Source of the DNA: Candidatus Binataceae bacterium
Lineage (GTDB): Bacteria > Desulfobacterota > Binatia > Binatales > Binataceae
NCBI GenBank assembly: GCA_035493515.1
Contig: DATJID010000035.1
Span: forward strand, 43,422 to 107,421
Direction of reading: 5' to 3'
DNA length: 64,000 nt
Made by a program: the position numbers and the translations under genes. The notes under the pieces were generated by a model. It worked only from the letters and a program-made list of their open reading frames with translations, was not told where the DNA came from and made no database searches. Positions 30,411-36,433 of the stretch are shown here, piece after piece; the first letter of the stretch is position 1; every line of letters begins with the position of its first letter.

Positions 30411-32618
30411 TTGTCAAACCCGATCCGCAAGCGGTCGGCGACCGCTGGGCGGCTGACGGTTTTGCTGATCACGGGATGGACGGCTCTCGTTGTCGCCCGG
30501 CCATGGGCCTCGGCGAGTTCGGTTAGCGGCGAGCCTGCCGCACGGGAACTCGCATCAAAGTCCGGGCAGCCCGCACTGCGGACAGGCCGCGAACCTTCGG
30601 TCCTCGCAGCCTGGACCGCGTCCGCGACGGATCGCGCATTCCGATCTCCACACGACCACACTTTCCCCCAAAGTATTGCTGGACGCTCCGACCGCGCCGC
30701 CGCGCACACGTCGATTAACTTCAGCGCGCTCGCCCGCGAAGAAGTGCGCGGCGCGTTTGGGCCGGCGCACCGCAATCGCGCGATGCGCCCGCGGAGCAAT
30801 CCTTTCGAGCACAATAGCCAGTTCGTTCCGACTCCACCATCCACTCCTGCACTCCGCGCGCGCCGACGGCGGACCGGTAAAGACCCAGCCGGCAAACACG
30901 CAGCACTCCTCGGATTTCCGGGACTCGGCGACAACCAAACCGCGATCCCGCCCGACACCGGGGGCGCCGTCGGTCCGGCTCATCTGGTAGTTGCGCTCAA
31001 TAGCCAGATCGAAATTCAAACTCGCGCGGGAACTTTTGTTAGCTCGATCAGCCTGCTCGGTTTCTGGTCCAGCCTGGGCGTTGGCTCCGTCACCGATCCG
31101 CGAGTGATTTATGACCCATATGGGCAGCGATGGGTCATCGTCACCGCGGCCGACCCGGAAACCACGGCCTCGGCGGTCTTGATCGGTGTCTCGCACAACA
31201 GCGACCCGACCGCGGGCTGGAATCTCTACCGAGTGCCGGTCGATCCGGCGGGCCTGCGATGGGGCGACTTTCCCACGCTCGGTTTCAACAAGAACTGGAT
31301 CGTGGTCGGGATCAACATTTTCACCATCGAGGGCACTTTCTACGAGTTCGCGAACCTTTATGTCTTCGACAAAGCGAACCTGTATGCGGGAGGCTCGGGC
31401 CTCTTCACCTTGCTGCAGGACGACACGGGCGGCTTCGCGATGAATCCGGCCCTCACGTATGATCCCAACCTCGCAACGCTCTATGTTCTGGAGTCGTGGA
31501 GTTCGGCCAACGGCTTGCTGCGAATGAGCACTGTCAGCGGTGCTGTCGGCTCCGAAGTGCTCACCACGGGCGTCGCTTTGCCCGCCGCCTCACAGCCCTG
31601 GCATGCGGTCGAACCCGCGATCAACTTCGCGCCGCAACTGGGTTCCGCCAACCGCATCGATATGGACGACGACCGGCTGGATTGGACCGTCTATCGAAAC
31701 GGATCGCTTTGGACTGCGCAGACGGTCTTCCTCCCGGCCAGTGGCACGCCGAATCGATGCTCGGTGCAGTGGTGGCAGATTGACACTGCGGCGGGCGACG
31801 TGGGCGGTATTCAGCAGCTCGGGCGGATCGACGATCCGACCGCGGCGCGATTCTTCGCCTATCCGTCGATCGGGGTAAATCGCGAGAACGACGCCCTGGT
31901 CGGCTATTCGCAATTCTCCGCCTCGCAGTATGCCGGCGCCGGGTTCTCGATGCGGATGTTCAGTGACCCGTCAGGCACTATGCGCGCCGGCGTCGTGCTC
32001 AAAGCGGGAGAGGCGCCGTACTTCAAGGATTTCGGCACCGGAGATAATCGATGGGGTGATTTCAGCAGCACGACGGTCGATCCACTTGACGACTTGACCC
32101 TCTGGACGCTTCAGGAGTACGCCGCGGCTGGCAACAAATGGGGCACCTGGTGGGGCGAGGTATCCGTTGGACCGACTCCGACTCCCACCGCAACGCCGTC
32201 GCCCACACCCACTGCATCACCGACTCCCACTGCAACCCCGACGCCTACGCCCACACCGAAGCCCACGCCAACACCTACGCCGACTGTGACGCCGTCGCCC
32301 ACACCGACGCCGTCACCCACACCGACGCCGGTACCAACCGCGACGCCCACTCCTAGCTTGACCATCCTCGCAACTGCGCTCCCCGCAGGTAGAGTAGGAG
32401 TCTTCTATCACGCCTCGCTGGGACTGAGCGGCGGCACGCCGCCCTATTTGGTTTATGTCAGTGCAGGCGCGCTGCCGCGAGGACTGGCGCTCAATACCTT
32501 CAATGGTTCAATCAGCGGGACGCCGGGCGCCGCGGGCCTCTCGACATTTATGGTCTACGCCACCGACCGGGGCTCCGAATCGGTGAGCGAAGTCTTTCAG
32601 ATATCGATCATTCGTTGA
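30411..32618 (+). CDS. large secreted protein, paralog A: signal peptide + ~550 aa unrecognised domain + Pro/Thr-rich linker + C-terminal putative-Ig (PF05345-like) domain
   Basis: Signal peptide [37 protein letters not shown] linker [27 protein letters not shown].... C-terminus [50 protein letters not shown] matches the putative-Ig domain pattern. Confidence 0.7.
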
Positions 32619-34339
32619 CGAGTCCTTACGCGCGAAAAATTCTCTATAAATTTTCATGAAATGTGCGCGCCACAGACTATCGCTCTGATAGCCAATTTAT
32701 AGGCGCAGCCATTCGTACTGATTTCTGCGGCGGGTCGTGCATTCAATTCTCGTTTACACAAAGTTTGACGGGGAATTCTCTTTGACGCGGAGTGTTGACG
32801 TGTAGCCCATTGCGATGAAGCGTCTTGGTTCGATCGAAATATGAGTGTCATCAAGCAGCGTTCTGTTTACTCGTTTCGTGCTCGAAATATAATGAACCTT
32901 GTTCTGAAATTTGCAGACTCGCAGCAGTTTGCTCCAAGCGAGATTTTTCTAAATGCAGAAGGTATCCCCCCGAAGAAGGCCTGACAGCAGGGTACCGAAG
33001 GCCTCATGGTTTTCTTCCGCACGATGGGCGAATTCGTCTGCGCGGCTCACCGGACGGTTGTTCGTGGCCAAGGGACGTGAAGTCCGACAGGCGAACGAAG
33101 TTGAAGGTGTAAAAAGTGACTGGGTCGAATCGTCCGGGGACCGGCTGCGTGCCGACGATCAGACCGATAGATCCGGACGGAGCCTCACGCGGGTGGTTCT
33201 TTTCGTTCCGGGACCTATCACCGAAGCTGACCTGCATCGTGAGAATCTCAAAGTCGCCGCGACTATTAGGCATCGTCGCCGGCGGTTTAAACGATTTCAA
33301 TGGCTAACCGAAAACATCGGCACCATCATGTTCGTGACGGCACTACTCGCTGTCATCTGGTTCGTAACGGGCAGATAAACGGCTTGTGGAAAATGGTCCG
33401 AAGCGCGCTGGCGACGGTTCGGACTTAGCGTGAGGACAGGCGCGACCAGTCGCGTCTTGGGCGCAGGCGGCTACAGCGTGCCAGCGATCTAGGAGGTGGG
33501 GCCGGTCAGAGTAGTGTAGAGGCTGTAAAGGACCACGGCGATCAAGGCTGCGGCAAGCACATATTCGGTCGTGGTTTGGCCACGCAGCGATTTTCGTATG
33601 TGTTTATATAGTATTTTCATCTCAAACCCCCTCACGTCACTACATAACGCTACTAAGCGACAATAAAGGAGTCAAGACGGCTGACCCTCCGACTCGTTAC
33701 CTGCTCGATAATTTGGCTATGAGTCCGTATTTATATCTATAATAATCTTTATTATCACGCCTCTGTAAAAATGTCTCGAGGGGGGCTCTGGAAGTCTGTG
33801 CCCATAGCGACGGTCGAGCGTAGGGCCGCGTGCTGCCAGATGGAACGCTTCGACAACCCGACCGCATCAGGCCAGCGGAGCCTTGCGATGGTGCGCCGGC
33901 GGATTTCCCCCTTTGCGGCCTTTCCATTACGCTCGGCTTCGCATTGCTCAAACACGCGCGCCAAAGTAACGCCGGGGCGCAGCCTGTCTCGCGACCGTGC
34001 TAGCGGGTCTAATTTGGACCCCGTGTCCGATCGCCAGGGAACGAGTTGCCGCCTCAGTGGTTTGTGTATCGTGGCCGATACGGTGGGAACGATCACAGCG
34101 TCAGCGTTAGGGCGTTCTCCACTGATACATCCAGAAGCGAAAACCTCCAGCCGCTAACCGTACTCATTCGCACATTACGCTTCGGATCGAAGCATGAGCG
34201 CTTTCGATCTGCCGATGTCTCGCCGGGCCCGCTCAACTGGGCCGAATCCCGACACTGATCTTGTGTCAGGGATAAAAATCGCCAGCCCGGCCTTGTCATT
34301 GCGTTCCATAGCCTTGAACCGAGAGTCGGTCCCGACCGG
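32619..34339. other. AT-richer island lacking long ORFs, between two paralogous secreted-protein genes
   Basis: Base composition is visibly lower in G+C than the flanks (runs like tctctataaattttcatgaaatg, tatttatatctataataatctttattatcac). Only short, ambiguous ORFs in the track. Contains the Flp pilin gene listed next. Confidence 0.7.
33489..33620 (-). CDS. flp: Flp/Fap family type IVb (Tad) prepilin
   Basis: Hand-translated 43-codon ORF not in the track: MKILYKHIRKSLRGQTTTEYVLAAALIAVVLYSLYTTLTGPTS. Basic leader ending in Gly, then QTTTEY + hydrophobic LAAALIAVV, i.e. the Flp motif (G/xxxxEY + hydrophobic core). Strong SD (GAGGGGG) 7 nt upstream; AT-rich promoter-like DNA upstream. Confidence 0.6.
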   Translation of the reverse strand: MKILYKHIRKSLRGQTTTEYVLAAALIAVVLYSLYTTLTGPTS

Positions 34340-36433
34340 GTGTTCCAGAGGCTAACGAAAATGACGACTGCTAAAACTTTAATTTTGAAAGCCATCCTCT
34401 CGATGGCACTCGCGCTGGTGAGCATCCCGTGCGTCCAAACTTTGGCCGCGGCGGCAGCGGTTCGTACCACAGGTACTGCGGGCCATGCGAGTCAGCACAC
34501 CTCCTTCAACTTTGACGCGGCGGCGCATGAAGAGGCGCTTGGCCCGATGCCTCTTAACGAGCATCGTGCAATTCATCGCCCCTTGTCCCCGCAGAATCAA
34601 AGCACCTTACAGAATGAGGACGCGGCTGCCGCACCTCAGAGTGCCGCGGAGGCGCCATCCGCTTCAACTCTGCAGGCGCTGGCACCGGTCAACAGTTTCG
34701 CGGCGATTGGCGACGATGGCACGGTGATTCCGCCGGATACCGAGGGTGCGGTGGGCCCTCATCATCTTATGGAGGCGCTCAACAGCCAGGTCGTTATTCA
34801 AGACCGGTCAGGCAAAATTCTAAGTGCGATCACCAACTGGACCTTTTGGGCTGCTCTGGGTGTCACGCAGTCGTTCGACGCACACATCCTCTACGATCCG
34901 TATGCCCAACGCTGGATCTTCTCCTCCGCCGCCGGCCAGAACTCCTCGGCCGCGGCCATCCTGATCGGGGTCTCGCAAACTAACGATCCCACCGCCGGAT
35001 GGAATATCTACAAGGTAAACCTTGGCTCTTCCGTCAACTGGGTCGATTATCCGACGCTTGGGTTCAACAAAAACTGGATTGTCGTGCAGGCCAACATTTT
35101 CACCGTCGCGGGCAATAGCTTTGTCAACTCGAAGATTTGGGCTTTTGACAAGGCGGACCTATATGCCGGCGGCACGGGCAAATATACCGCGCTCACGCCC
35201 AGCGGTGGCTTCACCCAGGTTCCGGCCACCACGATGGATCCCGATCTCTCGACGTTGTATCTGCTCGAGCAGAGCAGCTCGGGTTCCGGCAGGCTTCGGG
35301 TCGATACCATAACCGGCGCTGTCGGCTCCGAGGTACTGACCAGCGGCGTGGCTTTTCCGACCGGGCCGACAGCCTGGCAAGCTTTCTCGCCCGTCGCCAA
35401 CTTCGCTCCGCAACTCGGCTCCAGCGAGAATATCGCTACTGAGGACGGGCGTATCCAAAGCTGCGTATACCGCAACGGCTCGCTCTGGGCTTCGCATACC
35501 GTCTATCTTCCAGCCACTGGAACTCCGACGCGTACCGCCGCGCAGTGGTGGCAGATCGACATGAGTGCTGCAGCATTCGGACACGTGCAGCAGTTCGGAC
35601 GCATCGATGATCCCAGCGGAGCCAACTTTTACGCCTATCCGTCGCTCGCCGTTAACCGCAACGGCGATGTGATGCTCGGCTATACGCACTTCGGAGTTGG
35701 AATTTATGCGAGCGGAGCCTACTCGATCCATCTGGCGAGCGACGCTCCCAACACCATGGAGAGCGAGGTCATTCTAAAGGCCGGAGAGGCCCCTTATTTC
35801 TGGGACTTCGGCACTGGCGTAAACCGATGGGGCGACTTTACCGCAACCGTGGTCGATCCGACCGACGATACTTCCATGTGGACGATTCAGGAGTATGCGG
35901 GTCAAAGCAATATGTGGGGCACGTGGTGGGGTTCGATAACGCCCGGAGCGTCCGCTGCGACGGCCACGCCCACAGCCACCGCGACACCTGCTCCCACCGC
36001 GACGCCGACACCCCAGCTGACCGCGACGCCAACCCCCGCCGCCACTTCGACCCCGACGCCGGCGGCAACTCCGACGCCCTCAGCGTTGATCATCGGCGCT
36101 CACGGAGCGCTACCCCATGGGCATAGAACGGCGACTTACAGCGCCTCGTTAGAGGTGAAGGGTGGCAGCCAACCTTACCTCATGGCAGTGGTGATGGGCC
36201 ATCTGCCTCCGGGCCTCTCTATCGATCAGACCTCTGGCGCGATCACGGGAGTCGCGCTCAAGGCAGGTATTTGGTATCCGACAATTCGGGTGATCGACGC
36301 CGCAGGCAAAAGGGCACGCAGGAAATTCTCGCTGACCGTGAAGCAAGTCACGGCTGCATACTGTGAGCGGACGCTGCTATGCCAGGAGCCAAAAACGAAC
36401 GTCCTGTTGGCCAGTGCCAGGATCGGAAGCTAA
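34340..36433 (+). CDS. large secreted protein, paralog B: same architecture as 30411..32618
   Basis: Signal peptide (MTTAKTLILKAILSMALALVSIPCVQTLAAAAA). Extended collinear similarity to paralog A (e.g. IPPDTEGAVGPHHL / [14 protein letters not shown]; ILYDPYAQRW / [10 protein letters not shown]; TNDPTAGWNIYKV / [13 protein letters not shown]; [14 protein letters not shown] / [14 protein letters not shown]; NRWGDFTATVVDPTDD / [16 protein letters not shown]). PT linker, then putative-Ig C-terminus. Confidence 0.7.
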   Translation: MFQRLTKMTTAKTLILKAILSMALALVSIPCVQTLAAAAAVRTTGTAGHASQHTSFNFDAAAHEEALGPMPLNEHRAIHRPLSPQNQSTLQNEDAAAAPQSAAEAPSASTLQALAPVNSFAAIGDDGTVIPPDTEGAVGPHHLMEALNSQVVIQDRSGKILSAITNWTFWAALGVTQSFDAHILYDPYAQRWIFSSAAGQNSSAAAILIGVSQTNDPTAGWNIYKVNLGSSVNWVDYPTLGFNKNWIVVQANIFTVAGNSFVNSKIWAFDKADLYAGGTGKYTALTPSGGFTQVPATTMDPDLSTLYLLEQSSSGSGRLRVDTITGAVGSEVLTSGVAFPTGPTAWQAFSPVANFAPQLGSSENIATEDGRIQSCVYRNGSLWASHTVYLPATGTPTRTAAQWWQIDMSAAAFGHVQQFGRIDDPSGANFYAYPSLAVNRNGDVMLGYTHFGVGIYASGAYSIHLASDAPNTMESEVILKAGEAPYFWDFGTGVNRWGDFTATVVDPTDDTSMWTIQEYAGQSNMWGTWWGSITPGASAATATPTATATPAPTATPTPQLTATPTPAATSTPTPAATPTPSALIIGAHGALPHGHRTATYSASLEVKGGSQPYLMAVVMGHLPPGLSIDQTSGAITGVALKAGIWYPTIRVIDAAGKRARRKFSLTVKQVTAAYCERTLLCQEPKTNVLLASARIGS

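Follow-up and report, generated by a model that had tools for sequence, protein, structure and literature searches.

The window, a 64,000-nucleotide stretch of a Candidatus Binataceae genome, encodes a tandem pair of members of a real and very large protein family that has no description in any curated database. In structure models, the N-terminal head of these proteins is an ordinary seven-bladed beta-propeller. Our best overall reading, to which we assign a probability of about 0.45, is that each protein displays one conserved polar pocket on a predicted secreted head, which would work as an enzyme or bind a specific partner and is tethered to an Ig-like module.

Both genes lie on the forward strand. 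Paralogue 1 (30411..32618, 735 aa) starts at a TTG codon with a Shine-Dalgarno-like run, GGGGGGAGGG, upstream, and comprises a predicted signal peptide, a disordered leader, a clasp, a loop, the propeller, a Pro/Thr linker, and a He_PIG domain. Paralogue 2 (34340..36433) was listed with 697 aa; its true start is probably the ATG at 34361, which gives 690 aa, because its orthologue is called at this length. A composition-adjusted BLASTP comparison aligned residues 91–587 of paralogue 1 with residues 45–536 of paralogue 2, with 249 identities over 497 positions (50%), 5 gaps, and E=2e-172. Six N-terminal motifs described in the earlier note as collinear each occurred once per protein and in identical order, which agrees with its description of the two reading frames as tandem paralogues. 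That note also named purely compositional similarity as a way in which this description could fail, and it is conceivable in principle that the reading frames are not genes at all: the genome is GC-rich, with many long spurious reading frames in all frames, and both proteins contain low-complexity Pro/Thr tracts. We consider the chance of either to be negligible. The E-value was obtained with composition correction and the alignment lies outside the linkers, so the similarity is not compositional; moreover, hundreds of orthologues, conserved synteny, purifying selection, and a confidently predicted fold refute the notion of spurious reading frames. Orthologues of paralogue 1 in Binataceae metagenome-assembled genomes share 79–96% identity with it.

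As the earlier note had proposed, both proteins run from a signal peptide through a large N-terminal domain and a Pro/Thr linker to a He_PIG module. The predicted signal peptides show a basic n-region, a hydrophobic core, and AxA-like sites; in paralogue 1 (aa 1–35, ending ...VVARPWASA|SS; 30411..30515), the core has a KD value of 2.1 and the site is ASA. The clasp of paralogue 1 (aa 91–113, 30681..30749) is modeled as a beta-hairpin followed by a helix (pLDDT 96–97 in model 2), and its pattern, G..G.A....NF..LA..E, is conserved across the family alignments. Between the clasp and the propeller lies a poorly conserved loop that includes the sequence RARRRR and is predicted to be disordered (aa 117–163, 30759..30899, pLDDT <50). 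The propeller (aa 165–587, 30903..32171) is followed by the linker (aa 588–651, 32172..32363) and by He_PIG (PF05345; aa 656–733, 32376..32609; E=9.8e-10, 39.2 bits). In paralogue 2, alignment with its partner places the clasp (HTSFNFDAAAHEE...) at 34472..34540, and the propeller (aa 118–536, 34691..35947), which is 55% identical to that of paralogue 1, precedes a Pro/Thr/Ala linker (aa 537–583, 35948..36088) and He_PIG (aa 599–667, 36134..36340; E=3.5e-8, 34.2 bits). Both He_PIG matches exceed the Pfam gathering score of 24 bits. This likeness to other He_PIG proteins covers just the C-terminal 70–80 residues and is uninformative on the 420-aa head; outside Binataceae, other C-terminal modules are found in most family members.

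The head was regarded in the earlier note as a novel domain, a description that does not hold for its fold: both structure models contain seven four-stranded antiparallel blades arranged round a central axis, with an N-terminal strand closing the ring. The same note's statement that the domain lacks a curated family was borne out by searches of Pfam, NCBIfam, and PDB sequences. For the propellers of both paralogues, no Pfam or NCBIfam family was found at E<=1, with no match to WD40, Kelch, YVTN, NHL, PQQ, SBBP, or other Pfam propeller repeats; likewise, Pfam matched nothing in the propeller of 31 diverse members at E<=10 or of 30 long members at E<=0.001. Searches of PDB sequences with phmmer and two profiles returned chance matches only (HerA, E=0.07; a Tubby-related protein, E=0.14–0.16). 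All public names of family members are “hypothetical” or “Ig domain-containing”, a literature search on the family motifs retrieved nothing relevant, and the distant branch reached by using a divergent paralogue (L071) as a bridge was likewise unannotated and mostly fragmentary.

Among known proteins, E. coli YncE (PDB 3vgz), whose function is uncertain, is secreted and likewise folds into a seven-bladed beta-propeller. However, it shares only 12–13% identity with the paralogue propellers, with no sequence-level relationship; at about 320 aa, it has short loops and lacks a clasp, a linker, and an Ig domain, whereas the propeller in the window is about 100 residues larger and has long conserved D->A loops. 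The C-terminal propeller of the Friedel-Crafts alkylating enzyme CylK (PDB 7ron) is 7–9% identical to that in the window; CylK has its active site between the propeller and a separate Ca-binding domain at the N-terminus, and the enzyme belongs to a cytoplasmic natural-product pathway, a context of which we saw no sign around the pair.

A profile search recovered 19,529 family members, each representing a cluster at 50% identity, of which 5334 scored at E<=1e-30. The 133 genomic matches spanned many phyla, with loci in Binataceae, Acidobacteriota, Verrucomicrobiota, Polyangiaceae, Actinomycetes, Lentisphaerae, Ignavibacteria, and others, and the family is common in soil and sediment bacteria. 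The suggestion that it is lineage-specific is thus contradicted by its size and spread. Its architecture is consistent: the propeller starts within 200 residues of the N-terminus in 146 of 147 representatives, more than 150 aa follow it in 131 of the 147, and a hydrophobic signal-like segment is present in 118 of the 133 representatives whose N-terminus is intact. The C-terminal modules include DUF11, TIG, P_proprotein, PKD, CARDB, Big_9, cadherin-like, Calx-beta, BACON, fn3, FlgD_ig, and Por_Secre_tail, and no second catalytic domain was seen by Pfam in 30 long members. Overall, the propeller nearly always forms the head, at the N-terminus of a predicted secreted protein, and variable Ig-like, binding, or anchoring modules follow it. 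No neighboring gene was conserved across phyla, and the recurring neighbors (MacB/FtsX, an alpha/beta hydrolase, and one unannotated gene) were clade-specific.

The propeller is also under strong constraint. Although the 147 representatives share a mutual identity of only 35–50%, 71 positions are conserved in at least 93% of them, and each paralogue keeps 68 of these 71 residues. We computed dN/dS on orthologue pairs rather than on the paralogue pair, since dS is saturated at 50% amino-acid identity, and obtained 0.13 for each propeller; the N-terminal region is the fastest-evolving part, at 0.50. The propeller value and the 71 conserved positions do not fit the earlier description of the family as rapidly evolving. 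Twenty of the 71 positions fall in D->A/B->C loops, clustered in three long loops with no blade-by-blade repetition.

From this pattern, we infer that the propeller head is the functional module, with one strongly conserved polar site that has no repeats and sits on the face made up of the D->A/B->C loops. Candidate site residues, in paralogue 1 numbering, include D174, D182, N197, W397, Q409, D420, R422, D475, Y537, N546, R547, W548, and D550. Each protein consists of a predicted Sec-type signal, the clasp, the disordered loop, the propeller head, a Pro/Thr spacer, and He_PIG. The head would most probably be an extracellular enzyme, with a propeller of the hydrolase or lyase type whose substrate is a common polymer, for example a glycan; as a second choice, it would bind such a polymer specifically. 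The linker and He_PIG may provide spacing and tether the protein to the cell surface or the substrate. After duplication, the copies diverged to 50% identity with the putative polar site kept in both, suggesting related activities with different specificities. A more specific version, which we put forward tentatively, is that the propeller acts as catalytic domain in an undescribed class of extracellular enzymes, such as a new family of carbohydrate-active or polymer-degrading proteins, in which the clasp and the disordered loop would form an integral regulatory or pro-segment that may be cleavable.

The earlier note called the family adhesin-like, and the head could be the non-catalytic, ligand-binding tip of an adhesin or lectin, comparable to integrin alpha or PLL-lectin propellers. 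The stalk would be the Pro/Thr linker with He_PIG here and long Ig, cadherin, or DUF11 arrays elsewhere, and the head would attach the cell to surfaces, polymers, or other cells. This is less probable, and we do not favor it. Propeller lectins, including those of the PLL type, repeat their binding motif in each blade, whereas the conserved loop residues of the paralogues are blade-specific. Integrin alpha propellers are built on FG-GAP repeats with a Ca2+ loop; in contrast, a motif scan did not find the signature D-x-[DN]-x-[DN]-G-x-x-D in the paralogues, and their propellers had no FG-GAP Pfam match. (In one other locus, L039, FG-GAP matches occur in separate C-terminal regions, off the propeller.) Adhesin tips usually diversify, and the 71 positions that hardly vary across phyla and include many charged loop residues, together with the dN/dS of 0.13, are more typical of fixed chemistry. 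The pair represents a real family of unknown function and not a lineage-specific, fast-evolving adhesin.

It is much less probable that the head is a divergent sialidase-like glycosidase, of the GH33 type or a related propeller hydrolase. A Foldseek search (3Di+AA) with the model ranked such enzymes first: a Pseudomonas pseudaminidase (2w38/3h6j, E about 1e-7), trans-sialidases, NEU1/2, KDNase, and GH43 enzymes. The heads share with the pseudaminidase long twisted blades and conserved Asp, Arg, and Tyr residues, and Glu is also among the family's invariant residues. GH33 sialidases use an arginine triad and a Tyr/Glu nucleophile pair in a central pocket. However, the TM-scores were only 0.40–0.45, with about 0.44 for the GH33 and pseudaminidase comparison, and GH33 propellers have six blades, Asp-boxes (S-x-D-x-G-x-T-W), and an N-terminal (F)RIP motif, whereas the paralogue heads have seven blades and neither motif; on these grounds we rejected a GH33 sialidase. 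Motif scans of both paralogues found no HExxH, GDSL, Asp-box, or conserved FRIP (a YRVP in paralogue 1 only is not conserved), and no BNR/sialidase Pfam family matched at E<=10 in 31 members. The reading of the head as a polar-pocket enzyme or specific binder is the one that we retain.

If the head proves to catalyze a reaction or to be a specific receptor for a polymer, annotation could be extended at once to about 20,000 sequence clusters, whose proteins are now labeled “hypothetical” or named after their Ig tail and come from abundant and mostly uncultured soil phyla, and its function would inform how soil bacteria process extracellular material. Should the catalytic-class version be true, the family, with at least 19,500 clusters at 50% identity across Binatota, Acidobacteriota, Verrucomicrobiota, Myxococcota, Actinomycetota, and others, would be among the larger uncharacterized secreted families in soil bacteria. 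It is a well-delimited candidate for a new Pfam/DUF entry and for structural genomics, and involves no new biological principle.

The host of the window is an uncultured soil bacterium, and its gene pair is an old duplication retained in about 12 Binataceae species. These share the order nadA-acd-par1-par2-p3-htrA; in more distant species, this locus contains one copy only, and the clades of the two paralogues each have bootstrap support of 100. The 1.45-kb segment between the copies (32633..34080) has a GC content of 0.54, against 0.64 for the window, and a blastn comparison with 77 loci indicated a recent insertion, common only to the closest relatives (L014, L078). An Rfam scan of it gave no match. 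In about 10 other species, the pair lies head-to-tail with a short spacer, so the bracketing of the segment by the two copies carries little of the meaning once attached to it. The sole part of the spacer conserved by blastn in 8 other species (69–78%) is 34081..34339, probably the promoter or 5' leader of paralogue 2.

The low-GC island had also been said to hold a pilin gene. The island is real; the pilin is a doubtful 48-aa reading frame on the reverse strand (33489..33635, GQTTTEYVLAAALIAVV) that matches Flp_Fap (PF04964) at E=0.008 and 16.4 bits, below the gathering score of 32.2 bits. By eye, it has a G/xxxxEY-like motif, and no Tad genes were found among 29 window reading frames scanned. 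Its identity to the L014 and L078 sequences is about 90% in both nucleotides and amino acids, and therefore shows no clear coding constraint. Convergent with paralogue 2 is p3 (36551..38644, reverse strand), a third Pro/Thr-linker protein, predicted to be secreted, with no Pfam or PDB domain; it is syntenic with the pair, adjoining it in about 12 genomes, and adjoins a family member in another locus (L022). Promoter and terminator scans remained at background level, with the exception of one strong hairpin after p3.

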